64,000 nt of DNA, taken from a virus. The notes below the pieces were generated by a model. It made no database searches and had not been told where the DNA came from. It saw nothing but the letters and a program-made list of their open reading frames with translations. The stretch lies in IMG/VR virus record IMGVR_UViG_3300047393_000086, positions 1 through 64,000 of that record; one strand, written 5' to 3'. Shown here piece after piece: positions 1-18,029 of this stretch; the first letter of the stretch is position 1; each line of letters begins with the position of its first letter. Both the position numbers and the translations under genes were made by a program.

Positions 1-58
1 TCGAGCCCACTCCTCTAGATTTTCAGTCTAGCGCAATCACCTGATCTGCCAAAGCTCC
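1..58 (-). tRNA. tRNA-Phe(GAA), 3' end truncated by window edge
   Basis: Minus strand GGAGCTTTGGCAGATCAGGTGATTGCG-CTAGA-CTGAAAA-TCTAG-AGGAGTGGGCTCGA; D arm and anticodon arm intact. Confidence 0.85.
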
Positions 59-122
59 TTGCCTTTTTTAGAGTTTTTAATAGAACATTAGAACTCAAGG
101 ACAGTACGACCTAAAAACTAAC

Positions 123-208
123 TGGTGGGATGTGATGGAGTCAAACCACCCGAGTCATAAGACAAACGATTTACAGTCGTTCCCGCTATCCCTACGGTAT
201 AACATCCC
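123..208 (-). tRNA. tRNA-Tyr(GTA)
   Basis: Cloverleaf with loop CTGTAAA, long variable arm and encoded CCA. T loop is the variant TTTGACT. Confidence 0.9.
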
Positions 209-709
209 TTATTTTGTAAAATAATAATTCTTCCAAGAATCTCCTAAATAATCCTCTATAGATATAAGATCTTTAGATTTAATTACATTTGAATGAGCTA
301 GCCTGTGACAATTTGGACAAATATACGTTAAATTAGTATTTTCATTACTTCCTCCATCCTTGCGTGGAATAATATGATGTACATCTCCTACAACACCATC
401 ATGAAACCATCCACATGAAAAACATGGTAATTTCATTCTTCTTAATATTTTCATAGTGGTTCTATTACTCATATCAAGTATTGATGTTGCTTCTACCTTT
501 CTAACATATGCAGCATGTTTTGCTATAGATCTAATAGATTTCCTTTCATCTTTACCGGTATTATCAGAACTTAAAGTTCTACTAACCTTTTCATTAATTT
601 CTGTTCTTTTGGCCTTTGTGCTAAAACCCCTTGAACATTTAGTTGAACAAAATCTACCAGAACCGTAAGTTCCTTCATGTTCATTTCCGCAATTTTCGCA
701 TTTTTTCAT
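209..709 (-). CDS. HNH homing endonuclease with N-terminal Cys/Zn motif
   Basis: CFSC...DVHHIIPRKDGGSNENTNLTYICPNCHRLAH HNH motif. Stop codon abuts the tRNA-Tyr 5' end; late-type promoter at 732-739. Confidence 0.85.
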   Translation of the reverse strand: MKKCENCGNEHEGTYGSGRFCSTKCSRGFSTKAKRTEINEKVSRTLSSDNTGKDERKSIRSIAKHAAYVRKVEATSILDMSNRTTMKILRRMKLPCFSCGWFHDGVVGDVHHIIPRKDGGSNENTNLTYICPNCHRLAHSNVIKSKDLISIEDYLGDSWKNYYFTK

Positions 710-848
710 AATATTAAGTATGTTTATATACTATATATCTATTCGAATGTGTAAAAAATGTTACAGTAGTTCAAAAATATCCAATTTTGATGGGCTCATC
801 TGATAATATGTTTCAATTACCCAGCACTTGAGATTGGCAACTCCTTGT

Positions 849-922
849 ACATCTTGAAGGATTCGAACCTACGACCTCCTCGGTGTAAACGAGGCGCTCT
901 GAACCAACTGAGCTAAAGGTGC
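849..922 (-). tRNA. tRNA-Val(TAC)
   Basis: TAGCTCAGTTGG D arm, CCTCG-TTTACAC-CGAGG anticodon arm, GGTTCGAATCC T arm. Confidence 0.9.
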
Positions 923-1026
923 ATGGAGCTTCATAATGTTCACAACTAATAACCATATTGGATTATTCATTTACGTCTGCAACAGCTTTTAACTGAGAGA
1001 TTGCAGAATTGTGTATGAAGCATTTG

Positions 1027-1099
1027 TGACCCCGGCGGGCTACGATCCCACTACCCCCAAGTTAAAAGCTTGGTGCTCTACCGATTGAGCTACGAAGTC
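1027..1099 (-). tRNA. tRNA-Lys(TTT)
   Basis: CCAAG-CTTTTAA-CTTGG anticodon arm. T loop is the variant ATCGTAG. Confidence 0.88.
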
Positions 1100-1288
1100 T
1101 GGTGTAGGCAATTACGTTTTTAAAGAACTAGAGCCAACATTAAAACTTTTAAAGAGTATAAAAGAAACATCTTACCTAAGACCGCGAATCCATGCAAGAC
1201 TTAACTACACCAAACATTTTATTTGCAACTTAAATGTCTGTCACGTTACTACACTTCCGGTTTCTTTTATTGCGTCTAGTATTTTACT

Positions 1289-1360
1289 ACGACAATATAG
1301 GATTCGAACCTATGATTCCGGCCCCTATGGCCAGCGTGTTCTCCGCTACACTAATCGCCG
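1289..1360 (-). ncRNA. Atypical tRNA-like RNA (loop CATAGGG, lacks U33)
   Basis: Acceptor CGGCGAT/ATTGTCG, D stem GTGT/ACAC, stem CTGGC/GCCGG, T arm ATAGG-TTCGAAT-CCTAT. Confidence 0.65.
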
Positions 1361-1390
1361 CAACTATTATTACCTTCAACTTTTCTCTTT

Positions 1391-1518
1391 GTGACTGTAA
1401 GGGGATTCGAACCGTGATGATTACTAACTCGCGACACTTTCATCATCTTTCATTAACCTAGTCGTTAGACGTCTGATTTACCGGCAGACCTAGTTTTACC
1501 TTTACTAGTATACAATCA
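1391..1518 (-). ncRNA. tRNA-like RNA with very large variable-region insert
   Basis: 8-bp acceptor TGATTGTA/TACAGTCA, D stem CTAGT/ACTAG, GTCTG/CAGAC arm, insert of about 55 nt, then GGTTCGAATCC. Confidence 0.55.
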
Positions 1519-1523
1519 TTTAG

Positions 1524-1595
1524 TAGCGGGGGCAGGATTCGAACCTGCGACCTTCGGGTTATGAGCCCGCTGAGCTACCTCTGCTCTACCCCGCA
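1524..1595 (-). tRNA. tRNA-fMet(CAT), initiator type
   Basis: GCGGG-CTCATAA-CCCG with three consecutive G-C pairs in the anticodon stem and an unpaired 1:72 position. Confidence 0.9.
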
Positions 1596-1601
1596 ATATA
1601 T

Positions 1602-1695
1602 GCTGATTAGGATGGATTCGAACCATAATCCTGTTTCCTCTTTCAGGTACTCCGACCTTACTCCATTCTACTGTGCGCCTTTACACCATAATCAA
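1602..1695 (-). ncRNA. tRNA-like RNA with unrecognisable anticodon arm
   Basis: Acceptor TGATTA/TAATCA, D arm GTG..CAC, T arm ATGG-TTCGAAT-CCAT; middle region expanded. Confidence 0.55.
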
Positions 1696-1744
1696 TCGTC
1701 AGTTTCGAACCTGACAGCCTTAAGGTAATTACTCTTAAGATTTG

Positions 1745-1824
1745 TTGCGATTAAAGGACTCGAACCTCTGTTGGGTATATCTACCAATACGGCTCATGAG
1801 ACCGTCAATGCACCTGCATCGCAA
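1745..1824 (-). ncRNA. Atypical tRNA(CAT) with truncated D arm and long variable arm
   Basis: Acceptor TTGCGAT/ATCGCAA, ACGGT-CTCATGA-GCCGT, variable TTGG..CCAA, T arm AGAGG-TTCGAGT-CCTTT. Confidence 0.6.
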
Positions 1825-1894
1825 TAAATACCTGTCTTTCCAGATTGTCAGCGTTCTATTAAAAATGGAAGAAGTTTTGCGCCTATACCTTTTG

Positions 1895-1992
1895 TAATTA
1901 TGATTGGATTCGAACCAATTTCAGCTTTACCATAAAGAGTATATTTCAACTCAACCTTGGGGAGGTGCCGCCAACCAATGGCCTCATAATCA
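1895..1992 (-). ncRNA. tRNA-like RNA with three small hairpins replacing the anticodon and variable arms
   Basis: Acceptor GATTATGA/TCATAATT, D GCC/GGC, hairpins ACCT/AGGT, GAGT/ACTC and CTTTA/TAAAG, T arm ATTGG-TTCGAAT-CCAAT. Confidence 0.55.
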
Positions 1993-1994
1993 TT

Positions 1995-2072
1995 TGGAGC
2001 AGAGATAGGATTCGAACCTATAACCTAATCCGGCCTATTACCGGTTGCACGTCCAATTGTGCTTCAACGCTC
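1995..2072 (-). ncRNA. Atypical tRNA-like RNA (loop TAATAGG)
   Basis: D stem GCAC/GTGC, CCGG/CCGG arm, T arm ATAGG-TTCGAAT-CCTAT. Acceptor only partly paired; ends CCA. Confidence 0.55.
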
Positions 2073-2077
2073 ATATT

Positions 2078-2192
2078 TGCGAAGTGAATGGATTCGAACC
2101 ATTTGTCTGTACTTGTACGACTTTAACCAGACCACTCCTAGAGCTGCAGCTCTGTTATAATGTATGCATCAACCTCTAAATGCTTTCCCTTT
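2078..2192 (-). ncRNA. Degenerate or expanded tRNA-like element
   Basis: T arm AATGG-TTCGAAT-CCATT, D-like GCAT/ATGC, internal AGAGCTGCAGCTCT hairpin. Acceptor weak. Confidence 0.4.
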
Positions 2193-2194
2193 GA

Positions 2195-2345
2195 CTATTA
2201 CGGATGTGGACTCGAACCACATTATTTCAGTTACCTATGCGTTTTACTTTAAGCTGCCTTATTACTAAGGTTTCGAAGCGCATCTTTGATTAGGGAGCGA
2301 CCCTATCTCTAACGTCTTAAAGTAATTTGTTAGTCTTTTCCTTAC
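2195..2345 (-). ncRNA. Structured RNA ending in a tRNA T arm
   Basis: ATGTGG-TTCGAGT-CCACAT at the 3' end, upstream hairpins TAGGG/CCCTA and CCTTA/TAAGG. 5' boundary uncertain. Confidence 0.4.
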
Positions 2346-2422
2346 CTCTTAATAATTATAATTGCCAGTCAGATGTTACCCTCTGATGCTTACCAGAACT
2401 CGCTGGAATAATTATTAAATTG

Positions 2423-2494
2423 AGCAGATAGGGAGAATCGAACTCCCATCTTCAGATTGGAAGTCTGAAGTAATGACCATTATACGATATCTGC
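2423..2494 (-). tRNA. tRNA-Gly(TCC)
   Basis: TCAGA-CTTCCAA-TCTGA anticodon arm; full cloverleaf. Confidence 0.92.
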
Positions 2495-2538
2495 ATTATT
2501 TACCAAGATTTCAAATAACGTTTGTTTTAATTTGTTAT

Positions 2539-2606
2539 GTAAATATAAACAATTTTTTTCAATCCTGAAAACTTTTTATGTTAATTTTTTGTTAAAGTTA
2601 TTAACA
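2539..2606 (-). promoter_or_regulatory. Early-type promoter (TATATTTAC) with upstream TTAAC direct repeats
   Basis: Copy of a recurring intergenic motif also at 4568, 6523, 12045, 13285, 14189, 19113, 19331, 35696 and 57393. Confidence 0.65.
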
Positions 2607-2610
2607 ATTG

Positions 2611-2684
2611 TGGTCCATCTAGGATTCGAACCTAGGACCCTCTCGTTATGAGCGAGGCGCTCTACCAGACTGAGCTAAAAGACC
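2611..2684 (-). tRNA. tRNA(CAT), Ile2 or elongator Met
   Basis: CCTCG-CTCATAA-CGAGA anticodon arm; body resembles the Ile(GAT) tRNA at 2827. Confidence 0.88.
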
Positions 2685-2746
2685 GTTTAGAGTTTTCACG
2701 TTATTAAAGCCAACGTCCGGAATAATCTCTCAACCAAACCACTTTG

Positions 2747-2818
2747 TTACTCCTAATGGAATCGAACCACTGCCGCATGGATCAAAACCATGTGTACTAA
2801 CCGTTATACGAAGGAGTA
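2747..2818 (-). tRNA. tRNA-Gln(TTG)
   Basis: CATGG-TTTTGAT-CCATG; T1-A72 first pair. Confidence 0.9.
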
Positions 2819-2826
2819 TTAATATG

Positions 2827-2900
2827 TAGGCAATAATGGACTCGAACCATTGACCTCCTCGGTATCAGCGAGGCGCTCTAACCAACTGAGCTAAATGCCT
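2827..2900 (-). tRNA. tRNA-Ile(GAT)
   Basis: CCTCG-CTGATAC-CGAGG. Confidence 0.92.
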
Positions 2901-2904
2901 GAAT

Positions 2905-3062
2905 TTGGAAGGTCACCAACAGCACCTTCCTTGGTAGTTTTAGGAATAATTGACATTCCAAGGTTTCGAATTGTTTAACGTCTTGTTCTAAAAGACTCAA
3001 CGACTGTTGCATCGTCGCCGCACGAGACTACTTCTACCTTAACGCGAACTGGTTTTAAGCTT
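2905..3062 (-). ncRNA. Putative structured ncRNA of unknown family
   Basis: GC-richer non-coding stretch with hairpins GTCTT/AAGAC, CCTTGG/CCAAGG and GGAAGG/CCTTCC. Confidence 0.4.
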
Positions 3063-3065
3063 ATT

Positions 3066-3701
3066 TTATATGATTTTACGACCTAATCTCCATCCTTCAG
3101 GTATCATATCACCTTTATTGATTTTCTTAGATTCAATTTCGTTTGTTATCCAACACTTTCCATATTGAGAGTTATTAGATCCTTTTTGTTTAAGGGAATT
3201 AGATTCTCCTATTTTTCTTTTAGTTTCTTCTGAATGAGATTTACCAGTGAAATTATCATATTTTACATTTCCACTCTTATGGTTTTTAATAGATCCATTT
3301 CTTAATATTTCTTTCATTCTAATAGAATAGTCAATATTGCTCCATTTGTTATTTAACCATACTCTAGCGCCTTCTCGTAGGTTTAGACTGTGTGTATCGT
3401 CTGATATTCCTCCACCACCTCCTAATTGAAGATTCATACATAACTCTTCGTTAATCAATTCAACATTAACGATTTGTTTTTCTCTTTCTTTTAATGTTTT
3501 TCTATCAGGTAAGAATTCTAATATTTCGCAATCATGATTGTCTTTACCATGTTTATTGATTGAATACCATAATCTTTTGCCTGAACCAATATAACCATCT
3601 TCTAGATTATCTGTTGAATGCATTCCAATATAAAACTTGTTTGTAATAATACATGTAGTTTTATAAATGTAGTGATATTTTCTTCTTTGAGCTCTTTCCA
3701 T
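3066..3701 (-). CDS. GIY-YIG (Seg-like) homing endonuclease with NUMOD3
   Basis: YIYKTT..KFYIGMH..Y.GSG N-terminus and GKSHSEETKRKI NUMOD3 motif; late-type promoter at 3728-3735. Confidence 0.88.
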   Translation of the reverse strand: MERAQRRKYHYIYKTTCIITNKFYIGMHSTDNLEDGYIGSGKRLWYSINKHGKDNHDCEILEFLPDRKTLKEREKQIVNVELINEELCMNLQLGGGGGISDDTHSLNLREGARVWLNNKWSNIDYSIRMKEILRNGSIKNHKSGNVKYDNFTGKSHSEETKRKIGESNSLKQKGSNNSQYGKCWITNEIESKKINKGDMIPEGWRLGRKII

Positions 3702-3761
3702 GGATATTTAGATATTTTTCTATAATCTATATATCTATGGAAATGGCAAAAAGTTTCACAG

Positions 3762-3833
3762 TACTGCCACGGAGAATCGAACTCCGATTTTTAGGATGAA
3801 AACCTAATGTCCTAACCGTTAGACGATGGCAGC
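3762..3833 (-). tRNA. tRNA-Glu(TTC)
   Basis: TTAGG-TTTTCAT-CCTAA. Confidence 0.9.
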
Positions 3834-3839
3834 ATTTTG

Positions 3840-3911
3840 CGGACTTGGGGAATTTCGAAATCCCGACCCTTCACTTAACAGGCGAACGCTCTTCCTCTGA
3901 GCTACAAGTCC
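3840..3911 (-). tRNA. tRNA-Asn(GTT)
   Basis: TTCGC-CTGTTAA-GTGAA. Confidence 0.88.
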
Positions 3912-4016
3912 AATTTACTCTAGCACCACCTAGAGCCTTTGTCCGGCTTGTCCAAATAACTCACAACCGATTGTTGCGTTAAGGACCGAAGCTTGTAACC
4001 GGCGATCAATGCATTG

Positions 4017-4092
4017 TCTGGTAGGCAGGATTCGAACCTGCGTGCTCTAGCGTCCAAGGCCAGCGAGATAAACCGGGCTCCTCTACTACCAG
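4017..4092 (-). tRNA. tRNA-Pro(TGG)
   Basis: CTGGC-CTTGGAC-GCTAG. Confidence 0.9.
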
Positions 4093-4098
4093 TTAATT

Positions 4099-4175
4099 TG
4101 GCGGCTCGTATGGGACTCGAACCCATGACCTTCGCCGTGACAGGGCGACATTGTAACCAACTCTACTAACGAGCC
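4099..4175 (-). tRNA. tRNA-Asp(GTC)
   Basis: TCGCC-CTGTCAC-GGCGA; encoded CCA. Confidence 0.92.
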
Positions 4176-4184
4176 AAATTTTTG

Positions 4185-4257
4185 AGCCTCCTGTCGGGCT
4201 CGAACCAACGACCTGATCATTACAAATGATCTGCTCTACCAACTGAGCTAAGGAGGC
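4185..4257 (-). tRNA. tRNA-Thr(TGT)
   Basis: GATCA-TTTGTAA-TGATC. Confidence 0.92.
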
Positions 4258-4345
4258 AAATTTGATAGGTGACCATCCTATCATGAAACTTCCATGGATG
4301 TTTCTTTTCTTTATAGAATCCGTAGATACTGTAGGAACATTTTTG

Positions 4346-4425
4346 TACCCAAGGAGGGAGTCGAACCCTCAAGCTTTCGCCACGGCTTCTAAGACCGCTG
4401 TGTCTACCAGTTCCACCACTCGGGC
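4346..4425 (-). tRNA. tRNA-Leu(TAG)
   Basis: GCGGT-CTTAGAA-GCCGT with variable arm. Confidence 0.9.
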
Positions 4426-4432
4426 AATTTTG

Positions 4433-4517
4433 CGGAGGATGTAGGATTCGAACCTACGGTACCTTGCGGTACAACGGTTTTCAAGACCGCCGCGATCGAC
4501 CACTCTGCCAATCCTCC
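4433..4517 (-). tRNA. tRNA-Ser(TGA)
   Basis: GCGGT-CTTGAAA-ACCGT, long variable arm GTACC-GCAA-GGTAC. Confidence 0.92.
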
Positions 4518-4637
4518 TTAATTTCTATGCCAAGATGTCAATGAACATTTGTTCTAAATTTTGATATGTAAATATAATCAAAACTTTTTAAACCCGAAAA
4601 CTTTAAATGTTAAATTTATGTTAAAGTTTTCTTTTTG

Positions 4638-4708
4638 AGTCCGGTGTTGGAATCGAACCAACTTATCAGAGTTTGCAATCCTGTGCCTAACCAATCGACC
4701 AACCGAAC
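4638..4708 (-). tRNA. tRNA-Cys(GCA)
   Basis: CAGGA-TTGCAAA-CTCTG; U discriminator. Confidence 0.88.
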
Positions 4709-4718
4709 CTGTAAAATC

Positions 4719-4752
4719 AAAAAAGGACCATTCATTTCTGAAAGGTCCTTTT
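4719..4752 (-). terminator. Intrinsic terminator (putative attenuator) immediately 5' of tRNA-Cys
   Basis: Minus strand AAAAGGACC-T-TTCA-GAAA-TGAA-T-GGTCCTTTTTT. Confidence 0.8.
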
Positions 4753-4775
4753 GAATATTTTGTATGTTAATAGAT

Positions 4776-4913
4776 TTAACTCATATTAACATTTTTGTTT
4801 CCAAAAGAACCGTCTTGCTTCCAATCCGAATTACTAAAATACTGCTCACATATCGGGTTGCCTGTCGTAAGGACTGGTTGTTCCATAATGATATGTTTTT
4901 GAATTGCTTGCAT
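4776..4913 (-). CDS. Putative 45-aa leader peptide MQAIQKHIIMEQPVLTTGNPICEQYFSNSDWKQDGSFGNKNVNMS
   Basis: Read manually (below the ORF-track cutoff). A-rich start context, promoters at 4969-4997, followed by alternative hairpins. Confidence 0.65.
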   Translation of the reverse strand: MQAIQKHIIMEQPVLTTGNPICEQYFSNSDWKQDGSFGNKNVNMS

Positions 4914-4968
4914 TTTAATTGTTTTTGTTTGTTCTAATCTATATATAAGATTTAATTTTCTTATGTAT

Positions 4969-4997
4969 ATTATAGATCTATATATCTTTTTGTTTCA
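4969..4997 (-). promoter_or_regulatory. Middle-type promoter TGAAAC-N17-TATAAT with nested late-type GATATATA
   Basis: The same 17-nt-spaced motif recurs upstream of thioredoxin, gp44, gp55, gp41 and gp45. Confidence 0.65.
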
Positions 4998-5034
4998 TTA
5001 AATTTCACTTTAATTTGAACTATTTTTAATTATT

Positions 5035-5328
5035 TTAAAAAAGTTCATTTCCGAGTGAATTTGACCACTTTACCAGAATATCTCCGTGACATTTATTTGG
5101 CTTACACCAACATCCAAGAGTCTTTCCCTGTAATTCTATCAAAGAATTAAATAAAGTTTCATTTTCTAGAAGATATTTTTCATATTTTTCTAGGGCTTCT
5201 GCTCTATTCTTGACCCTAAATTCTGCAAGGGTCCCTTCTTTATGTGAATATGGATTTCCCCATTTTGAGGGTCTTCCGATATAAACATCGTAAGGTTCTT
5301 TTTTAAGATGAACTATCTTTGTTTGCAT
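5035..5328 (-). CDS. DUF4326-like protein
   Basis: DVYIGRPSKWGNPY...L.GKTLGCWCKP..CHGDIL motif. Confidence 0.8.
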   Translation of the reverse strand: MQTKIVHLKKEPYDVYIGRPSKWGNPYSHKEGTLAEFRVKNRAEALEKYEKYLLENETLFNSLIELQGKTLGCWCKPNKCHGDILVKWSNSLGNELF

Positions 5329-5342
5329 CTTTATTTAATTTG

Positions 5343-5460
5343 TTGTCAGGACAGGATTCGAACCTGTATCTACGTCTAGTCTTGTTTAGCCGACCATACC
5401 CAACAAGAGCGTCTACCATGAAAGGATCTTTAATATTCCTAACTATTCCGCCACCTGACT
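5343..5460 (-). ncRNA. Leu-like tRNA scaffold with inserted D loop and enlarged anticodon loop
   Basis: GTCAGG/CCTGAC acceptor, TGGCGGAAT..[insert]..GGTAGACGC, TCTTGTT/AACAAGA arm with 15-nt loop, ACAGG-TTCGAAT-CCTGT. Confidence 0.6.
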
Positions 5461-5625
5461 ATTTTCGCTGATATTAAAACTTGTTCAATCACTTTAAAAA
5501 AATATCAACTTGCTACTTACTATATTTAGGCTCGCCAATCCTGTATCATATTATAATTTACCTGAACCTTCGTTGGGTTGTTGATTGACCACTCCCAATT
5601 ACTCAAGAAGTTTTTAAAATTTTAA

Positions 5626-5793
5626 TTACTTTACAGTGTCAACTTTTACAGTATCGACTACTGTTGAATCTACTGCTACTGAATCAACTTGAACTGCTGT
5701 TGAATCTGTTGATGTTTCTGATGTTGCAGTTGTTTTGTTACAACCTACTGCTAATGTAGCTACCAAAGCTAATGCGAAAATTACTTTTTTCAT
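5626..5793 (-). CDS. Small lipoprotein, 55 aa, with D-S/T repeats
   Basis: Manual translation MKKVIFALALVATLAVGCNKTTATSETSTDSTAVQVDSVAVDSTVVDTVKVDTVK; lipobox AVGC. Confidence 0.8.
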   Translation of the reverse strand: MKKVIFALALVATLAVGCNKTTATSETSTDSTAVQVDSVAVDSTVVDTVKVDTVK

Positions 5794-5835
5794 TTTAAAA
5801 TTTATTTAGTTAATCATGAAACTTATGTTTCATAG

Positions 5836-5906
5836 TAGCCCCGCCAAGAATCGAACTTGGAAATCCGCTTTAGAAGAGCGGCGGTATATCCGTTTACCTA
5901 CGGGGC
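5836..5906 (-). tRNA. tRNA-Arg(TCT)
   Basis: CCGCT-CTTCTAA-AGCGG. Confidence 0.9.
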
Positions 5907-5926
5907 TGTTATTCTTATTACTTTAA

Positions 5927-6280
5927 TTATACTAAAGAATCGACTTTTGTTTCAAGTTCTTTAATATGTTTACAATTGCCTCGTCTAAAAGTTGAAGCTG
6001 GACAATTACAGCTCCAAATGCCTCGTTGTCTTTTAACAACATATTCAGATTTTCCATTTGATGAAGGAACCTTAAACTCCATGTCTTTTTGAGGCTCTGG
6101 CTTCACTTCTGTTGAATCACTTACTGGTTCAATTATTATATCATCACTGAACTCTACATCATCTCTGGTAGTACCATCTTCAACAGGAATCCAACCCGGG
6201 CATATAAAGGTACCGTTTAAGGTTTTAACAATTCCAAAAGTTTGAAATACTCCGTGTCGAGGTATCTTATATTTTGCCAT
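5927..6280 (-). CDS. SWIM zinc-finger protein
   Basis: WSCNCPA....GNCKHI motif. Confidence 0.7.
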   Translation of the reverse strand: MAKYKIPRHGVFQTFGIVKTLNGTFICPGWIPVEDGTTRDDVEFSDDIIIEPVSDSTEVKPEPQKDMEFKVPSSNGKSEYVVKRQRGIWSCNCPASTFRRGNCKHIKELETKVDSLV

Positions 6281-6583: not shown

Positions 6584-7126
6584 TTATAAATTCATAGTGT
6601 GCTTTGTTCCGTCTGCCATACTATAAACAATATGTAGCGGTTTCAGCGAATGCTCTTGTGAATTTAAAATCTTTAAATATTTACTCCCCTTTCCAGGTTT
6701 TAAGTATGCAACTGTCATGTGTGGATGATAATCCGGATAGTCTGACGAATATGGTAGTTCGCATAGAGATTTATTTGCAGCATGTAAATTATCTCCCTTA
6801 ATGTCAAATTTAAGTACATCAAATTTTTCATTTTCAAATAGGGAAATATTGTGGGCTAAACATTCTCCAAAATCAAAGCCATCCAGCTTTTCCCTTACCT
6901 GCTCTAACGATACATCTGGTTTTAAACCATATAATAGGGTACAGTGAGGTTCTGTTTCTAATCCATGACCTCCATTATTATCATCATGATAAATGTCTTC
7001 TGCACTAATTTCTTTATGAATTGCTTTCATCTGCGGAAAGTCAAAATATAACATTGCACAATTAGAATCGTAAGTTGGTTTTTCAGCTTCGTTCATGAAT
7101 TCTTCAAATAATTTTATTCTTTTCAT
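6584..7126 (-). CDS. 2H phosphoesterase, T4 gp57B/Acb1-like
   Basis: Two HxT motifs (HCTLLYG, HMTVAY) and DYPDYHPH; carries the N-terminal tag MKRIKLFEEFMNE. Confidence 0.75.
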   Translation of the reverse strand: MKRIKLFEEFMNEAEKPTYDSNCAMLYFDFPQMKAIHKEISAEDIYHDDNNGGHGLETEPHCTLLYGLKPDVSLEQVREKLDGFDFGECLAHNISLFENEKFDVLKFDIKGDNLHAANKSLCELPYSSDYPDYHPHMTVAYLKPGKGSKYLKILNSQEHSLKPLHIVYSMADGTKHTMNL

Positions 7127-7144
7127 ATCTATTTCTTTTATTAA

Positions 7145-7444
7145 TTATGCTCCAAAATCTAAGTCAAGTGTATCATCCTTTTCATCATCATAATCTCCAG
7201 TTAAATCAACATCTTTTAAATCTATACCTTCAACTTTAATCTTTGGTCTAAAATGACCATCTCCGTCAAAATATGCTTTAAAGCTTCTACCAGAACCTAC
7301 AGCACCACACCATTCCATGAATGCAAACATTTTTAAAAAATCGTCTGCAGTTTCTTGGTCAATATTAGAAATAGTTACATTTAATGTAACTGTTCCGTCT
7401 TCCGCTTCATTTAAGAAGTCTTCGAATACTTTTATATGTTTCAT
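7145..7444 (-). CDS. Hypothetical protein with N-terminal tag
   Basis: MKHIKVFEDFLNEAE; acidic. Confidence 0.7.
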   Translation of the reverse strand: MKHIKVFEDFLNEAEDGTVTLNVTISNIDQETADDFLKMFAFMEWCGAVGSGRSFKAYFDGDGHFRPKIKVEGIDLKDVDLTGDYDDEKDDTLDLDFGA

Positions 7445-8208
7445 TATTTCTTGTTTTCTTTTTTATCGTAATATTCCCAAACCTCATCTAATTGTTTAGG
7501 ATCTGCTAACCAGCTTTCCCACCAGCCTCCACCTTCTTCTTCAACTAAAGAACCATCTTTTAATTTACGATATTCTTTTTCTTTAACTGCAATTTTAAAA
7601 GTTTTTGGTGTAAATGGAAATGATTTAATATAATGCATACAACCAATTTGTTCTTCGCTGCCCTCAGTTATACTAACATGACCTGTAAAACCATAATCTT
7701 TTCCTTCAGGAATCCATACGATTGAATCTAAGTAATATGGTTGACCTTCTTTACCTTCTTTGAAAACCGAACTAAGTCTCATATTTTGAAAAGTTCCAGT
7801 GCCTTCTTCAGCGTCTTCGTATATTGAACAATCTGACCATTCTTCGTCTGTTCCCATGATTCCTTCTCCAAGTGGCTCCTGCGCTAATAATTTCTGTAAC
7901 ACTTGAACAATAACTGCACTCGTAAATGGAGCTGAGCCACCGCTTTGACCAGAATCAGCAAATTTCTTTACTAATGCCATTACTTCAGGCACAAACTCTT
8001 TAATAATTGGAGTCCCACCTTCATCTTTACCTTCAGCATTTTTCATCATAAGATCCAATTCAAATTGAGCCTTATCGACTAATCCTTCATTGATAGAATC
8101 AACAGAGATCATCTTAACACCTTCGTGTAAGAATTTAATTAGCTGAAATTTAACTTTGTTTTCGATTGATTCTGTTAAGAATTCTTCGAATAATTTAATT
8201 CTTTCCAT
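7444..8208 (-). CDS. Hypothetical protein with N-terminal tag
   Basis: MERIKLFEEFLTES; translationally coupled to its neighbours. Confidence 0.7.
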   Translation of the reverse strand: MERIKLFEEFLTESIENKVKFQLIKFLHEGVKMISVDSINEGLVDKAQFELDLMMKNAEGKDEGGTPIIKEFVPEVMALVKKFADSGQSGGSAPFTSAVIVQVLQKLLAQEPLGEGIMGTDEEWSDCSIYEDAEEGTGTFQNMRLSSVFKEGKEGQPYYLDSIVWIPEGKDYGFTGHVSITEGSEEQIGCMHYIKSFPFTPKTFKIAVKEKEYRKLKDGSLVEEEGGGWWESWLADPKQLDEVWEYYDKKENKK

Positions 8209-8554
8209 TTGTTGGGTATTTTACCATTGTATTTCTTGTTAAACTCTTGTCTGTGTTTTTTACAAAACCTAGACCTTTATAAAATTTCTCTAATCGTGAA
8301 ACTGATGTTGCCCCAAAATCTTTTGATGGAGTTAAATATATTGGTTTGTTTTGTGCATTTGCAAATGCAATTACCAAATCCATAACTTCAGTGCCAATTC
8401 CCTCTCCCCTTTTTTCTTTAGGTATTTCAATTCTTGTAAGTTCGACATAATTTGGGGTATTAAATACATCCAACTTAATTCCGAACTTACCCTCTAAATC
8501 TTTAAGGACCATTTCCTCATTTAAGAACTCTTCGAAAAGTTTAACCTTTTTCAT
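8195..8554 (-). CDS. GNAT acetyltransferase with N-terminal tag
   Basis: RGEGIG acetyl-CoA motif and FYKGLGF; MKKVKLFEEFLNEE. Confidence 0.8.
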   Translation of the reverse strand: MKKVKLFEEFLNEEMVLKDLEGKFGIKLDVFNTPNYVELTRIEIPKEKRGEGIGTEVMDLVIAFANAQNKPIYLTPSKDFGATSVSRLEKFYKGLGFVKNTDKSLTRNTMVKYPTNGKN

Positions 8555-9338
8555 CGATTTCTTTTATTTTTTTAATCGCCCAATCGACTCCTTCATCTCC
8601 ACCCCAAATTAACCAAGCAACATATCCATTATCTTTCCATGGTGTTGATTTATATTCTGGATTTATTTCTGAATTTTTTCTATGTCGATTAAATTGTGCC
8701 ATTCTACTAATAACATCTCGGGAAAGCTTTTCTCCTTTTGCCAATTGATTCGCTCTCTGCCATCCAACTGGAGTACCTGCAGTTACCTCATCGCGACCAT
8801 ATTCATCTCTCCAATCAAGTGCTTTCTTTGCGTTTGCTTTTGCAGCAGCTGGATAGTCATTATAAGTTTCTTCAGCCTCATTTAGGGACTCTTCAACTTT
8901 ATAAGGTAACTTTTCGTCATGTCCGCCATCTCTGACCTCTTTAGCCAAATCAGCATCTGCTTTTTGCCAAGTACCATCACCTTTTTCAAGGAATGCATTT
9001 ACACGGGCATAACCCCACTGTTCTTGTGTTGCTCCTGGATGGTGGCTAGAATTCCAAGCTCCCATTCCTCTGCGCATTACAGCTCTAATAATTCCGATCG
9101 GAACTCCAGATTCTTTTGCCTTTTTATCCAATGCTTTATTGATTGCAGCATTATCTAGTTCCTCTCTAGATGTTTCTTTTTCTTCTGCTTCTTGAACATG
9201 TTCTGGAGAATTATCGTGTCCACATTCGTGACAAATATAAACATCATCTCCACCCTCTTCGAGCCTCCATTTCCAGCCGCATTCATCGCACTTTATCTGG
9301 TTCGCCGAAAATTCTTCGAATGTTTTTAGTTTTTTCAT
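8541..9338 (-). CDS. Multi-domain protein (Zn ribbon plus two small domains) with N-terminal tag
   Basis: MKKLKTFEEF, CDEC..CHEC, domains separated by VQEAEE and SLNEAEE; late promoter at 9343-9350. Confidence 0.7.
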   Translation of the reverse strand: MKKLKTFEEFSANQIKCDECGWKWRLEEGGDDVYICHECGHDNSPEHVQEAEEKETSREELDNAAINKALDKKAKESGVPIGIIRAVMRRGMGAWNSSHHPGATQEQWGYARVNAFLEKGDGTWQKADADLAKEVRDGGHDEKLPYKVEESLNEAEETYNDYPAAAKANAKKALDWRDEYGRDEVTAGTPVGWQRANQLAKGEKLSRDVISRMAQFNRHRKNSEINPEYKSTPWKDNGYVAWLIWGGDEGVDWAIKKIKEIDEKG

Positions 9339-9350
9339 AGATTATATATC

Positions 9351-9860
9351 TTATAAATAAGATGATGAAAGGTCTCTCAGATGATTTAAAAGGGATCTGT
9401 CCTCAATTCTATGAATTATTTTCATTCCTTCTTGTTGTCTTTTAAGACCAATTGTTGTTTGTCCAGAATTAAATGTAATTGTATGTAGCTTTGCAATTTT
9501 AGGGTCCATTTCAAAAATACAGCCGGAAAATTGGTCATCTTTTGTCTGTAAAGGGACTGAAACCCAATAAACTCGATGTGAATTCATAATTTTGTTGTAT
9601 TGACCTTTAGGAATTGAGAATGAATCAAAATAAATTAAGGGTGCATTTGTTTTTACCTCAACATTATTTCCATCAATTATCATATCCTTTTCAGAATCAA
9701 AAACATTTAAGGACTCATCGACTTGATGTCCATTATCTCTAAAATGTTTTGCTACAATCTTTTCGCCTAACATTCCTAATAGGACTTTTTTATAATCTAC
9801 TGACATCTTTCCATTCTTTTTTATATACTTTCTCCCAATGTGCTCTGTATTCTCTAACAT
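9351..9860 (-). CDS. Putative PD-(D/E)xK nuclease
   Basis: G.LGE, D..IDG..VEVKT pattern. Confidence 0.55.
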   Translation of the reverse strand: MLENTEHIGRKYIKKNGKMSVDYKKVLLGMLGEKIVAKHFRDNGHQVDESLNVFDSEKDMIIDGNNVEVKTNAPLIYFDSFSIPKGQYNKIMNSHRVYWVSVPLQTKDDQFSGCIFEMDPKIAKLHTITFNSGQTTIGLKRQQEGMKIIHRIEDRSLLNHLRDLSSSYL

Positions 9861-10104
9861 TAATCATTTTAATGGTGTAAGACCATTCCGTATCGTCTTC
9901 AATAATCGTTATGAATAATGTGATTGTTGATGGAGGAACATATGAATCTTTAGCCCACTTAAATAATTTTTGAATATTTCCTTTCTGTCTTAATTTTTTA
10001 GAAAATGTTCTAATATCGCAATCATGCCATACAAAGGGATGGTAGCTCAAAATACTCGAGCTACCATGTCCTATATAACCTATATTAAATATGATTAGTT
10101 TCAT
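9790..10104 (-). CDS. Hypothetical protein
   Basis: ORF coupled to the RNA ligase stop. Confidence 0.55.
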   Translation of the reverse strand: MKLIIFNIGYIGHGSSSILSYHPFVWHDCDIRTFSKKLRQKGNIQKLFKWAKDSYVPPSTITLFITIIEDDTEWSYTIKMINVREYRAHWEKVYKKEWKDVSRL

Positions 10105-11228
10105 TAGTGAGAATCTCCAACGTTATTCTTTTCACCATAAATCAAATAGTCTGGATTAATTACTTTCGCAACTTTTTGTCTTTCACCAGTAACATGTTTG
10201 ATTACAATTCCTTCATGCGGCACTTTAGTTCCTTCAATGAAATTATTAAATACAAAACCGTCTTGTACCTCTTGATTCCATAAACCATCATAAAGTACTT
10301 CAACGTGTGGAAGTTCTAATACATCTTCAATGATATATTGCGCCAAATCAGTATCTGCGTATCTACCATCGATTGTGATATCGAATCCAGCGAATTTGAT
10401 ATCGGTTAAACCATATTCGTAATTCTTTTGAATTCCTGCACCATAGATTTCTCCATATAGAACAAATCCTCCACCGATCTCTTCAGTATCTCTAGTTTTT
10501 ACAGCTTCCCATAATTTTTGTTTGATACCATAATCTTCGGCAATAGTTCTCCAAACATCAGTTGAATAGAATCCCTGAGAATCACTCCCTTTCTCCACGT
10601 TATGAGAACCATACACATATTCGTAACCAATCCATTCGTCAGCAAGTCCAAAGAATTTCTTTAATTTATCAAAGAACGATAATTTATTCTTACGAACAAT
10701 ACCGAAACGTGCATTTGTACCGTGTAATTTACGGGTAATTTGAACCCCATCCTCTTCTGTGAATAATCCAGCAACATTCTTTAAGTTCGGAAACTTATAG
10801 TAAACTGTAAAATTCGGGTTAGATTGGTAACGAATCTTTTTACCATTCGCTAATTGCACTTGTTTTACAGGTGGTTCGAACTTAGTAATACCAAGTTCAT
10901 CCATTAGGTCTCTACCCTCTCTAATACTTGATGCTTTGATATGAATGATTGGAATAATCAAACATTCTGAATAAACTCCACGTAATTTTACAGTACGTAC
11001 TCTTTGACCTTTACGTAAGTATGAAGTTACTCCCATTTTATCTGACAATTCCTGTGGAATTACAGCATCTGTAGTTGCAATTGCTACTAAAGCACCTTGG
11101 TTAAATTCACCTTTTTTAGTGACCGCATTCCACCCACCAACAATTGCTAATTCGATGTTATCAGCACCTTCAATTGGTCTGATTTCTGTGATTTGCCCTA
11201 CATAGCAAACTGAATTTTGATTTTCCAT
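10104..11228 (-). CDS. RNA ligase (DRB0094/Rnl5-like, N-terminal OB domain)
   Basis: IEGADNIE OB domain, motif I KLHGTN, GEIYG, FDI, EGIVIK, KVINPDYL. Confidence 0.88.
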   Translation of the reverse strand: MENQNSVCYVGQITEIRPIEGADNIELAIVGGWNAVTKKGEFNQGALVAIATTDAVIPQELSDKMGVTSYLRKGQRVRTVKLRGVYSECLIIPIIHIKASSIREGRDLMDELGITKFEPPVKQVQLANGKKIRYQSNPNFTVYYKFPNLKNVAGLFTEEDGVQITRKLHGTNARFGIVRKNKLSFFDKLKKFFGLADEWIGYEYVYGSHNVEKGSDSQGFYSTDVWRTIAEDYGIKQKLWEAVKTRDTEEIGGGFVLYGEIYGAGIQKNYEYGLTDIKFAGFDITIDGRYADTDLAQYIIEDVLELPHVEVLYDGLWNQEVQDGFVFNNFIEGTKVPHEGIVIKHVTGERQKVAKVINPDYLIYGEKNNVGDSH

Positions 11229-11611
11229 TATATTAATTCAAATTTAGTTATTTTATCTCTACTTTCTTCTTTGTTTATTCCTATTAAATAATTCTTAACA
11301 TTTCTAACAATTAATTTGCTATAAAATGTTCCAATATATCCTAAAGTTACTTTTTTCTTTTCGGATGGTCTTTGTGTTAAATCAATTTTAGCATTTTTAA
11401 CATCACTTATTGCGGATAGTATTTGGTTTTTATAGCCTGATTTACCATCAATTAAATTAATGGTTCTTTTAGTTAAAATACCGTCGACAACTATTCTAAT
11501 TTGATGAGGTTTCTTACCCTTAAGATATGTGATTAAATATTCATCGTATCCAGTTTGTTTAAATCCTTCATCGGTCTTTTCGTATTTTGCGACTTTAAAA
11601 CTCGTTTCCAT
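11228..11611 (-). CDS. Hypothetical protein
   Basis: ORF in operon. Confidence 0.6.
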   Translation of the reverse strand: METSFKVAKYEKTDEGFKQTGYDEYLITYLKGKKPHQIRIVVDGILTKRTINLIDGKSGYKNQILSAISDVKNAKIDLTQRPSEKKKVTLGYIGTFYSKLIVRNVKNYLIGINKEESRDKITKFELI

Positions 11612-11613
11612 AC

Positions 11614-11928
11614 TTATTTAATTAATGATTCTATTTTGTCTGTGAAATCTCCAGCATAAGTTGTACCTCCAACATTAAACTGTGTTAATTCATTTTCAGT
11701 GTAATTTCTTGAGAATGTTTTCCAATCATAAATTGTAAATATCTCATCGTTAAATTCTACGACCCATTCTACTTGAACTTTGTCGTCTCCTGAAGGTTCG
11801 TCATATGTAGGTTCTCCTAAAGTTTCTATCAATTGACTATAAGTCGCATTAATATAACCTTTGTGCGATGAACCATTAGTAACTCCGTCTGCTTCTTGAA
11901 AATTTAGTACTTTTAAATTTGTTTTCAT
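11614..11928 (-). CDS. Hypothetical phage protein
   Basis: DKVQVEW..TIYDWK motif; near the early promoter at 12045. Confidence 0.65.
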   Translation of the reverse strand: MKTNLKVLNFQEADGVTNGSSHKGYINATYSQLIETLGEPTYDEPSGDDKVQVEWVVEFNDEIFTIYDWKTFSRNYTENELTQFNVGGTTYAGDFTDKIESLIK

Positions 11929-11930
11929 CT

Positions 11931-12020
11931 TTATATTGTTTTTAATAACATTTCCATTGTTAATACTCCTGATGCATACATTTGATTTAATTCTTCGTCT
12001 GTGTAAGTTCCGTTTGCCAT
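11931..12020 (-). CDS. Small 29-aa early protein
   Basis: Manual translation MANGTYTDEELNQMYASGVLTMEMLLKTI; fills the gap after the promoter. Confidence 0.5.
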   Translation of the reverse strand: MANGTYTDEELNQMYASGVLTMEMLLKTI

Positions 12021-12115
12021 AATGGTTTTGTTTAAATTTGATATGTAAATATAAACAAAAAAATCCAGATTAAAAAATCTGGATTGTTAAATTTATGTTA
12101 AAGTTATTAACAATT

Positions 12116-12655
12116 TTACTTGAATATCTTTCCCACTTCTTCTTTACCAAATTTTGCCTCTAATGCTTCTATTGCCAGTTTTTTATCACTAGAACTTAAT
12201 GCCTTAAAGTTTGCCTCAATCATACTATTATTTTCAGTCGCACTTTTATATTTTCTACCATCATCAATATATTGAGCGTAGAAATCATATGAAAATGCAT
12301 ACTTTAAGAATTTCTCAAGTTCTGACATGTATTTCCCTTCTAATGTCTTTGTTAAATCAGCAACCTTAGTTTTCTTTTTGTTTAAATAGAATTCCCATGA
12401 ATCTGTTGTCATTCTCCATTTAGCAGTCATGAACATGTGAATAACATCACCTTCCGAAAGGGTCACTTGAAATTTAATACCATCACTTGTTGATTGGTCT
12501 TGAATATCTTTAATCCATTTTTCGTCATTAGTCGGTAGGACTCTAGAAACTACGAATTTAGCGTCTTGTAATAGTTCTTCAGGAGAACCCCACTTGCCTT
12601 TTTCTAATTCTGAATAGGTAGTGTATTTTTCAAAGGTCATTATTGCTTTTTTCAT
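12116..12655 (-). CDS. Hypothetical protein with divergent N-terminal tag
   Basis: MKKAIMTFEKY. Confidence 0.65.
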   Translation of the reverse strand: MKKAIMTFEKYTTYSELEKGKWGSPEELLQDAKFVVSRVLPTNDEKWIKDIQDQSTSDGIKFQVTLSEGDVIHMFMTAKWRMTTDSWEFYLNKKKTKVADLTKTLEGKYMSELEKFLKYAFSYDFYAQYIDDGRKYKSATENNSMIEANFKALSSSDKKLAIEALEAKFGKEEVGKIFK

Positions 12656-12665
12656 AATCTATATA

Positions 12666-13067
12666 TTATAGTTTAATTTCAAATCTTTGTTTCATTTTGT
12701 CCAAGGTTTCTTGAGGAACTCCATGAACATTAACTCCTTCATGTCTGTTTTCTACGATTAGGGAAGTTACTCGATAACCATATTGTTCAGCAAGTTTATA
12801 GTAAACTTCCATTTCCCATTCTTGAGTGAATGTATTTGAAACTATGATTGCACTATTATGTCCTAGAAACATTGCGCGTTCTACCGAACTTTGACACCAT
12901 TTATGGGCCTCTTTGATTTGAGTAACGTCGAATTTATATTCTCCATCTCTCATAAAAAACATATCAGCTTCAAAGTGAGCAGTTCCGGAACTACCAGCCC
13001 CTAATAACACTGCAGTTGTTGATTTCCCACTTCCAGGTAATCCTCTAAGTAATATTAAATTTTTCAT
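12666..13067 (-). CDS. P-loop kinase (AAA_33/PNK kinase-like)
   Basis: LLRGLPGSGKST Walker A, EADMFF, VSNTF. Confidence 0.8.
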   Translation of the reverse strand: MKNLILLRGLPGSGKSTTAVLLGAGSSGTAHFEADMFFMRDGEYKFDVTQIKEAHKWCQSSVERAMFLGHNSAIIVSNTFTQEWEMEVYYKLAEQYGYRVTSLIVENRHEGVNVHGVPQETLDKMKQRFEIKL

Positions 13068-13261
13068 TTTTTTAATTTATATAAATTAATTCCTAAAATT
13101 AGTACGTTAGTTATAATAACCGGAACTGATTCTAAAATTGAACCATAAGTAATCCATGCAATGCATCCAGCGATATTAACCAATCTTAGCTTTTTAACGT
13201 CCGTCATTAAAAAAGAGGAGGATGTTAGGATCATTGCAGCGTATCCAAGTATTTCAATCAT
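13064..13261 (-). CDS. Small membrane protein (YgjV/PQ-loop-like)
   Basis: Three hydrophobic helices, LRLVN..G...WITYG. Confidence 0.6.
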   Translation of the reverse strand: MIEILGYAAMILTSSSFLMTDVKKLRLVNIAGCIAWITYGSILESVPVIITNVLILGINLYKLKK

Positions 13262-13342
13262 TTTTGTTTGTTTTAATTTGATATGTAAATATAAATAAAA
13301 AACTCCAGACTAAAAAATCTGGAGTGTTAAATTTATGTTAAA

Positions 13343-13558
13343 TTATTCAACACTTTCGTGTTTCTTAATTTTATGATGTTTTTTATATTCGTTAATAAAG
13401 CTTTCGCCAACTCCAATTTCATCAATGATATACTCATCAGGAATTAGGGGCTTTCGGGCTCGACCATTGATAATTCTATCAGGATTTTGTTCATTTAAAA
13501 ATACTGTCATGTATTTTGTTTTTGAACGTTCTGATTTTCTATAAACTACAACTACCAT
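13343..13558 (-). CDS. Hypothetical protein
   Basis: Coupled to the sigma gene. Confidence 0.6.
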   Translation of the reverse strand: MVVVVYRKSERSKTKYMTVFLNEQNPDRIINGRARKPLIPDEYIIDEIGVGESFINEYKKHHKIKKHESVE

Positions 13559-14154: not shown

Positions 14155-14258
14155 TTGTGGGGATTTAGTTTGTTTAAATAATTATAATGTAAATATAACT
14201 ATAATTTGTGAATAATAAAAATCTTTTTTGTTAATTTTTTGTTAAAGTTATTAACATT

Positions 14259-15317: not shown

Positions 15318-15321
15318 AGTA

Positions 15322-15834: not shown

Positions 15835-15862
15835 TGTTATTTGTTTTAGAGTTTATATATTA

Positions 15863-18020: not shown

Positions 18021-18029
18021 ATTTTGTTT

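Follow-up and report, generated by a model that had tools for sequence, protein, structure and literature searches.

Eight RNA elements (E1-E8) in the tRNA gene array of a large phage retain the T arm, and most of them the acceptor stem, of a tRNA, on bodies that otherwise depart widely from the cloverleaf. The window analysed here is the first 64 kb (64,000 nucleotides, nt) of a 76,991-bp viral contig (IMG/VR record IMGVR_UViG_3300047393_000086), and the elements lie on its minus strand between positions 1289 and 2345. Comparative analysis places them in new families of phage RNA, of a kind that is known but unexplained, each element being an independent module, under selection in related phages and, except perhaps for E4, not a decoder. 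The explanation that we favour, with somewhat more confidence than doubt, is that the modules are stable RNAs on a tRNA chassis, which host tRNA-processing enzymes would cut out and in which a family-specific 'cargo' would do the work.

The feature common to all eight elements is the T arm. The motif GGTTCGA(A/G)TCC occurs 16 times in the window, where shuffles predict 0.07 occurrences, and each of the eight places at which an earlier note on this DNA had reported it is confirmed, on the minus strand; on the plus strand, as GGAYTCGAACC, these T arms lie at 1300, 1403, 1614, 1756, 1906, 2008, 2090 and 2208. T-arm sites outside default tRNA calls number seven within 1289-2345, plus one at 5354 in a ninth element. 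ARAGORN at default settings calls only 1288-1361 and 1523-1595 in the element stretch, and the Rfam tRNA model (RF00005, gathering score 29 bits) gives 46.7 bits to 1289-1360, 27.3 bits to 1997-2071 and 23.4 bits to 1745-1823, with no match at E up to 10 for E2, E3, E5, E7 and E8. E1 is therefore the only one of the eight with either a default ARAGORN call or a score of at least 29 bits, the outcome of a check that the earlier note had proposed. No other Rfam family matches the elements when the models are searched over the array stretch.

The rest of the upper tRNA half is retained to different degrees. Acceptor stems have 7 bp in E1, E2 and E5, 6 bp in E3, E4 and E7, and 4-5 bp in E6, and the stem of E8 is weak; D stems are found in E1, E2, E3, E5 and E6. 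The earlier claim that most elements keep both stems thus stands for acceptors of 6-7 bp (six elements) and D stems (five), but the D stem is absent from E4, E7 and E8. As for the parts able to form a tRNA elbow, the T arm is present in all eight, the 6-7-bp acceptor in six, and a GG in the D loop or its replacement in E1-E7. The elements are packed head to tail among real tRNAs on the same strand and, with the ninth element counted, the window holds about nine modules of this kind in more than six unrelated families. A search for acceptor strands that asks for 6 of 7 pairs within 180 nt is expected to return about 2.4 chance matches and says little on its own; covariation was used instead.

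Compensatory changes are found in E2, E3, E4 and E5 when homologues from related phages are aligned, and their absence had been named in the earlier note as one mark of plain pseudogenes. The sequences within each alignment are related to one another, and every result is set against 500 shuffles and against slid alignments (24-52% paired). For E4, a covariance model (R1) scores 18 members at 63-108 bits and ordinary tRNAs at 36 bits or less; in the model alignment of 17 members, all 180 of 180 cells are paired and 11 of 20 pairs have changed on both sides (0/500 shuffles; slid controls 33-47% paired). One E4 homologue, in contig L052, was found without the search pattern, and there the loop is kept and the stem covaries. 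In E2, 99.5% of cells are paired and 9 of 31 pairs have changed on both sides (0/500 shuffles), the compensated pairs lying in the D stem, the 'anticodon' stem, the 3-bp hairpin and the large hairpin, with the 9-nt and 20-nt loops invariant. The unit formed by E3 and its leader E3a has 98% of cells paired and 8 of 24 pairs changed on both sides (0/500 shuffles), including pairs in the T-like hairpin of the leader and in the middle hairpin. The signal in E5 comes from 13 distinct homologues, with 97.5% of cells paired, 4 of 28 pairs changed on both sides (4/500 shuffles; slid controls 24-50%), and compensation in the acceptor, the D stem and hairpin 2. These alignments document both the structures and selection on them, and the argument of the earlier note that retained pairing speaks against random decay is borne out by conservation as well as by compensatory change.

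The conservation extends over a wide set of relatives. Six IMG/VR contigs that share the neighbouring Tad3-like gene carry the same modules, with their tRNA arrays placed elsewhere, and exact-word scans with module cores supplied further contigs (16, 7 and 10 from IMG/VR, and a few from metagenomes). A metagenome scan with an E5 16-mer gave mostly chance matches, with 5 real ones among 80 loci screened by blastn and two more among the rest. As a set, the modules are put at 80-100% identity in relatives. By module, identity to the window is 98.75% for E4 in three genomes, 88-97% for E5, 81-98% for E2 and 72-90% for E3, compared with 85-96% for tRNA-Gly, 72-79% for the promoter region and 78-88% for adjacent coding DNA. 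Against the complete 256-kb relative G003, the modules are 92-100% identical, the promoter region 79% and the neighbouring protein gene 88% at the DNA level; part of the spacer preceding E8 fails to align with G003.

The modularity of the set is seen in its changing order. E4 follows E5 in the window and precedes it in G003, E6 comes after tRNA-Lys in G001 and G003, and the break points of the rearrangements coincide with module ends. We counted 112 orphan T-arm modules in 19 loci, belonging to more than 15 sequence families. LR756500.1, the closest relative in the annotated collection, has no module homologue except tRNA-Met-like pieces.

Read along the minus strand, the stretch begins with the structured spacer sp8, which shares 83-87% identity with its counterparts in at least 8 relatives, has two hairpins with compensatory changes against G004, includes the conserved blocks GGTAAGCATC and GGTAAGGAAAAGAC, and has no Rfam match. 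The element reported at 2195 as one unit does carry a T arm, but it is a composite of two parts, E8a and E8b, the second of which travels with E7. E8a is 100% identical in G003 and 89-99% identical in L036, L034, L052 and L054, stands separate from E8b in L052, and is missing where only E8b and E7 occur; E8b directly precedes E7, without E8a, in L053, L055, L057, L058, L090 and L143. The core blocks of E8a, AAGACGTTA and TTCGAAACCTT (2256-2320), recur on the minus strand at 2929-2985, upstream of tRNA-Ile(GAU), and this copy is a second, shorter version of the motif that lacks the GGGTCGCTCCC hairpin insert.

The acceptor of E7 encloses only the mini-tRNA core, in which a 6-bp acceptor, a GG-containing D-like loop, a small hairpin and the T arm are present and the anticodon arm is absent. 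In relatives (82-99% identical; 99% in G003) the acceptor GGAGUG/CACUUC becomes GGAUAG/CUAUCC or GGAGAG/CUCUCC, making three compensated versions. A natural deletion variant occurs in L052 (IMGVR_UViG_3300045539_000120, around 2546-2625, in tRNA orientation), where the T arm and D-like region of E7 are gone and its two acceptor strands remain as a plain hairpin, fused directly to E5. E6 is a near-cloverleaf with an 'anticodon' loop, UAAUAGG, that lacks U33; it is 92-100% identical in relatives, in which its stem CCGG/CCGG becomes CUGG/CCAG and its loop changes too. In E5, three small hairpins replace the anticodon and variable arms.

The spacer E4a (fold z-score +0.4) is 97% identical in G001 and absent from G003 and G004. 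E4 itself has the canonical loop CUCAUGA, with a CAU anticodon and G37, together with A73, G2-C71 and C3-G70; in its family a GGU-containing loop of 8-12 nt replaces the D stem, and the 4-bp variable arm exists in three compensated versions. The body of E3 consists of a 6-bp acceptor, a D arm, a variable middle that contains one hairpin, and an extended T arm; in G003 and G004 the middle is shorter by 20 nt. E2 has an extra domain of about 55 nt in addition to its conserved 9-nt loop CCGGUAAAY, and its invariant 20-nt loop closes a 6-bp hairpin that lies within the 5' strand of the T stem. E1 has A33 and a probable pentaloop, AUAGG; its homologues are about 80% identical, with the stems kept and the loop altered, so that ARAGORN reads tag, tac or nothing. 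The description of the anticodon and variable regions as remodelled therefore fits the pentaloops, the 9-nt loop and the multiple hairpins, but not the loop of E4. The ninth element scores 29.6 bits against the Rfam tRNA model with large inserts, just over the gathering score, is called by relaxed ARAGORN only with introns allowed, and among the fetched relatives has no close homologue beyond the end of its T arm.

We note that short palindromes occur in conserved loops of three elements (UCAUGA in E4, UCGCGA and CCGG in E2, and UGCA in E7), and such loops could, as far as their sequences go, allow loop-loop dimers. The T-loop UUCGAA is likewise palindromic, and the loop palindromes may be coincidence.

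Table 1. Modules, tRNAs and protein genes of the window discussed in the text
Feature	Position	Strand	Description
HNH gene	209-709	-	within tRNA array
E1	1288-1361	-	cloverleaf, tRNA-Leu(tag) by ARAGORN, without long variable arm
E2	1391-1522	-	7-bp acceptor, 5-bp D arm, 5-bp arm with 9-nt loop, 3-bp hairpin
CAU tRNA	1523-1595	-	initiator-type tRNA-Met; default ARAGORN call
E3a+E3	1602-1743	-	142 nt; leader, then tRNA-like body
E3a	1695-1743	-	two-hairpin 49-nt leader of E3; second hairpin with GGUUCGAAAC loop
E4	1744-1823	-	D-armless tRNA-like RNA, long variable arm, T arm
E4a	1824-1893	-	70-nt spacer, no clear fold
E5	1894-1994	-	7-bp acceptor, D arm, T arm
E6	1995-2077	-	near-cloverleaf: 4-5-bp acceptor, D arm, 4-5-bp 'anticodon' stem, T arm
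E7	2078-2195	-	two conserved hairpins, then ~60-nt mini-tRNA core
E8b	2196-2245	-	T-arm hairpin UGUGG-UUCGAGU-CCACA with tail; leader travelling with E7
E8a	2246-2330	-	5' domain of element 8; long-range stem UUACUUUAAG/CUUAAAGUAA around two hairpins
sp8	2331-2421	-	structured spacer following tRNA-Gly(UCC); several hairpins, not tRNA-like
tRNA-Gly(UCC)	2422-2494	-	real tRNA preceding sp8
GIY-YIG endonuclease gene	3066-3701	-	within tRNA array
Ninth element	5341-5465	-	acceptor and T arm kept; inserts in D and anticodon regions
2H/Acb1-like phosphoesterase	6584-7126	-	upstream of array
Tad3-like protein	7444-8208	-	upstream of array
Rnl2-type RNA ligase	10104-11228	-	upstream of array
P-loop kinase	12666-13067	-	upstream of array
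Sigma factor	13558-14154	-	
PNKP-type HAD phosphatase	18030-18476	-	upstream of array

The half of a tRNA comprising the acceptor stem, the T arm and the elbow is the part read by RNase P, the 3'-end trimming enzymes and the CCA-adding enzyme. In the chassis explanation, each module keeps this upper half (acceptor stem, T arm, and a GG-containing D loop able to form the elbow) and, because it is what the maturation enzymes recognise, the modules would be excised from the polycistronic tRNA transcript and have their ends matured as those of tRNAs are. The lower half would have been swapped for conserved cargo particular to each family, i.e., odd loops, extra hairpins or whole domains, with E4, which retains its canonical CAU anticodon loop, as the exception. 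The cargo would act in trans, most plausibly as the ligand of a protein that takes part in the contest between phage and host over tRNAs. That the modules are processed and stable, and that they have any function in trans, is what we infer here.

The best available indirect sign of tRNA-like maturation is a tRNA-type 3' trailer that the modules share with canonical tRNAs. Among the distinct canonical tRNAs and orphan modules of this phage group, the trinucleotide that follows the discriminator is CAA in 96 of 197 canonical tRNAs (49%) and in 33 of 82 orphan modules (40%), CTA in 17% and 16%, and CCA in 9% and 5%, respectively. The CAA trailer is present on E2, E4, E5, E6, E7 and the 5354 element, and both G003 and G004 encode a CCA-adding-type nucleotidyltransferase (L205 and L204). 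By word counts, six metatranscriptome runs contain 34-52% of the sampled words of 1100-2620; the three canonical tRNAs in this stretch make up about 14% of it, too little to supply that fraction, and the word content is suggestive, though only suggestive, of RNA from the modules. Among the three roles proposed in the earlier note (decoys, processing scaffolds and Y-RNA-like molecules), the processing scaffold fits best, given the kept tRNA half, the head-to-tail packing and the CAA trailer, and the Y-RNA-like role is left without a partner.

Several observations weigh against the chassis explanation. The fold z-scores of the single sequences are -0.1 to -1.6, compared with -2.1 and -3.0 for two real tRNAs; E8a, sp8 and E4a have no tRNA chassis at all, and the acceptors of E6 and E8 are weak. 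The E4 alignment is fitted to its own model, and in 17 of the 18 members the anticodon arm was fixed by the search pattern. What suggests that the cargo does the work is its conservation, for example that of the invariant 20-nt loop of E2, and a search of the 77-kb contig for antisense targets of the conserved loops returned only self matches and chance 10-mers. The Ro/TROVE domain (PF05731) is absent from G000, G001, G003 (complete), G004 and G005, with positive controls, in a search that covers phage contigs; Rsr could still be host-encoded.

YrlA-type Y RNAs of bacteria and phages (Ro60/Rsr) resemble the elements in joining a tRNA-like module (T arm, D-loop contact and acceptor-like stem) to non-tRNA helices in a non-decoding RNA, and the elements differ from them in having no long Ro-binding stem that closes the molecule. 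A Y-RNA/Ro system was considered and rejected: this contig and the 256-kb relative encode neither TROVE/Ro nor RtcB, and the Rfam Y_RNA and YrlA models give no match at E up to 10.

A bolder version of the chassis explanation, which we think unlikely, would make the modules a general RNA-production platform of large phages: host tRNA-maturation enzymes would excise and CCA-tag the chassis RNAs, swappable cargos would act in trans against tRNA-directed immunity, and E4 would be charged and used on the ribosome as a D-armless CAU tRNA with a long variable arm, the first such body in a bacterial system.

Published work has shown phage tRNAs to counteract defences that cleave tRNAs, and the modules may instead be decoys or sponges that soak up tRNA-binding defence proteins (anticodon nucleases, tRNA-modifying toxins or tRNA sensors) and so spare the real tRNAs. 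We regard this role as a possible one but improbable, and it overlaps with the chassis explanation, for the chassis would still be the handle for maturation. The array adjoins genes for an Acb1/2H phosphoesterase, a Tad3-like protein, an Rnl2-type ligase, a P-loop kinase and a PNKP-type phosphatase, and this region (6584-18476, minus strand) is a tRNA/RNA-repair and anti-defence neighbourhood, which suggests that the tRNAs of the lineage are under attack. In addition, the loops of E1, E6 and E3 evolve fast on conserved bodies, as an arms race predicts, and E4 pairs a perfect CAU loop with an abnormal body. However, most of the loops mimic no anticodon loop, as they lack U33 and have 5 or 9 nt, so anticodon-specific nucleases should not be fooled by them; this counts against the decoys for anticodon nucleases that the earlier note raised.

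It is rather doubtful that the elements are unusual but working decoding tRNAs, whether for quadruplet or recoded reading or, mainly in the case of E4, as a D-armless Met or Ile2 tRNA. E4 comes closest, with its conserved CUCAUGA loop, stem covariation, A73, G2-C71 and C3-G70; no other element combines a conserved anticodon with a loop of 7 nt that has both U33 and purine 37, and G37 next to CAU is atypical even in E4. The other seven of the eight lack a 7-nt loop having U33 and purine 37: position 33 is A in E1 and E6, whose loops are probably pentaloops, the loop of E2 is 9 nt long, and an anticodon arm is missing from E5, E7 and E8. E1 does score 46.7 bits as a tRNA, and the 9-nt loop of E2 resembles those of frameshift-suppressor tRNAs, but the 'anticodons' read by ARAGORN vary among near-identical homologues (tag/tac in E1; aat/aaa/agt in E3), and the genes of the window are long unbroken frames under the standard bacterial code, with nothing to indicate recoding. 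Two other CAU tRNAs are present. The one at 1523-1595 is of initiator type, by its mismatch at 1-72 and its GGG/CCC anticodon stem, and the one at 2610-2684 (minus strand), whose body resembles tRNA-Ile(GAU) at 2826-2900, is probably tRNA-Ile2, so E4 would be a third CAU species.

D-armless mitochondrial tRNAs exist. Allo-tRNAs, too, show that non-standard cloverleaf tRNAs occur in nature (PMC5389517). E4 resembles such molecules in that its canonical anticodon loop is carried by a body without a D arm but with a long variable arm, and E3 in its 6-bp acceptor and extended T arm. Allo-tRNAs and D-armless tRNAs have been shown or argued to decode, whereas E4 has G37 after CAU and is known from sequence.

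Three further origins or identities for the elements were tried and rejected. The intron-containing tRNAs called by relaxed ARAGORN (2079-2193, 1894-1991 and 5342-5453) have 'introns' that are conserved structured inserts and anticodons that are unconserved. A recent origin from canonical tRNAs is not supported, as the acceptor, D and T bodies match 508 canonical tRNAs of these phages no better than background; bodies so unlike canonical tRNAs point to old separate lineages, not recent wrecks. A bacterial origin of E4 fails as well: the 25 genome matches to its anticodon-arm 17-mer are fewer than the estimated chance count, and across genome contigs this 17-mer yielded no E4-like RNA, the best two model matches scoring 36 and 32 bits.

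Equally hard to credit is a role confined to the operon in cis, in which the modules would be processing punctuation, spacers or insulators for the neighbouring real tRNAs, or, at the DNA level, T-arm targets of GIY-YIG or HNH homing endonucleases, with no function in trans. Head-to-tail packing among real tRNAs and the GIY-YIG and HNH genes inside the array fit such a role, and T4 SegB recognises a T-arm motif of tRNA genes (PMC2330249); by analogy, SegB-like targeting by the homing endonucleases of the array may be what makes modules shuffle at their T arms. Against this, real tRNAs have their own processing signals and are packed elsewhere without such modules, as in G005, where tRNA-Gly is followed by tRNA-Lys with no orphan T arm between them. 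The cargo helices, moreover, show compensatory changes and the invariant cargo loops lie far from the T arms, which shows that selection acts on a folded RNA and not on a DNA site.

Decay into tRNA pseudogenes, which location in a tRNA array and failure with standard tRNA callers might suggest, is very improbable and is already refuted by the compensatory changes, which are joined by conservation that equals or exceeds that of real tRNA-Gly (94.5%) and adjacent coding DNA (88%), by family-specific conserved inserts, by raised GC content and by bodies unlike canonical tRNAs.

The surrounding genome is that of a large T4-like myovirus, marked by a T4-type portal, sheath and prohead protease, a family B polymerase and a ribonucleotide reductase; all large open reading frames of the window are on the minus strand. 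Among annotated phages, the closest entry of the collection belongs to an uncultured phage of 462 kb, whose portal shows 58% identity, and the sequencing runs that contain this DNA are freshwater and wastewater metagenomes. The minus-strand tRNA array spans 1-5907 and holds 18 tRNAs by ARAGORN. The GC content is 41-45% in the element stretch and about 30% in the surrounding genome, and the stretch contains no open reading frame longer than 75 amino acids. The early promoter that the earlier note had placed at 2539, as the elements' own, has a counterpart in a candidate promoter upstream of tRNA-Gly, a 9/12 match to the sigma-70 consensus at 2571-2542, which is a consensus match only.

The closest known kind of RNA is represented by T4 RNA C (species 1, rnaC, 139 nt) and RNA D (species 2, rnaD, 119 nt), whose roles are given as unknown in a 2010 review (PMC3014915). 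Like the modules, rnaC and rnaD are small RNA genes within a phage tRNA cluster, on the tRNA strand and head to tail with tRNA, and the T4 region (57B, segB, tRNAs, rnaD, rnaC) has a GIY-YIG endonuclease gene inside the cluster, as the window does. The upstream gene is 57B (annotated as an RNA ligase) in T4 and the Acb1/2H-type phosphoesterase in the window. The 3' 93 nt of rnaC form an 8-bp acceptor and a GGGUUCGAAUCCC T arm, followed by ACAAA, with a 5' extension of about 46 nt; this layout, a tRNA-like 3' domain with a non-tRNA remainder, is that of E3a+E3 and is shared with E2 and E5, and the CAA-type 3' trailer is like those of the window modules. Sensitive blastn comparison with rnaC and rnaD detected only T-arm 17-23-mers at an E of 0.075 or worse, and Rfam holds no model for either RNA. 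A GGGTCGCT hairpin motif common to E8a and rnaD was rejected as a link, being within chance (an estimate of about 0.2 shared 8-mers). T4 has two such RNAs, whereas the window has about nine modules, known here from genes alone.

GOLLD and ROOL are phage-encoded structured RNAs of unknown function that also cluster with tRNA genes (PMC12286853). They are single large RNAs of up to roughly 800 nt with Rfam models of their own, whereas the window modules are separate, 60-140 nt long and mostly set in an acceptor/T frame; the GOLLD and ROOL models match nothing in 1-6000 (E up to 1) or in 1100-2420 (E up to 10). ROOL is about 580 nt long. The TMERs of murid herpesvirus 68 are tRNA-like/pre-miRNA transcripts made by RNA polymerase III and tRNase Z. 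In these, too, a viral, uncharged tRNA-shaped module is a handle for host processing enzymes that release small RNAs, but the virus is eukaryotic and the cargo lies 3' of the tRNA-like part, whereas in the window it lies inside the module.

In sum, genes of the T4 RNA C/D kind are not an oddity of T4 but belong to a rich, selected and modular repertoire that stands beside tRNA-repair and anti-defence genes. The structures supported by covariation provide concrete RNAs for synthesis, and for annotation they carry a warning, as relaxed tRNA callers assign such modules spurious anticodons (Leu-tag, Val-tac, Ile-aat and Thr-agt). If the modules are matured by the tRNA machinery, their natural chassis might serve for stable small-RNA expression in bacteria, and the RNAs themselves would add a new class of participants to the contest between phage and host over tRNAs.

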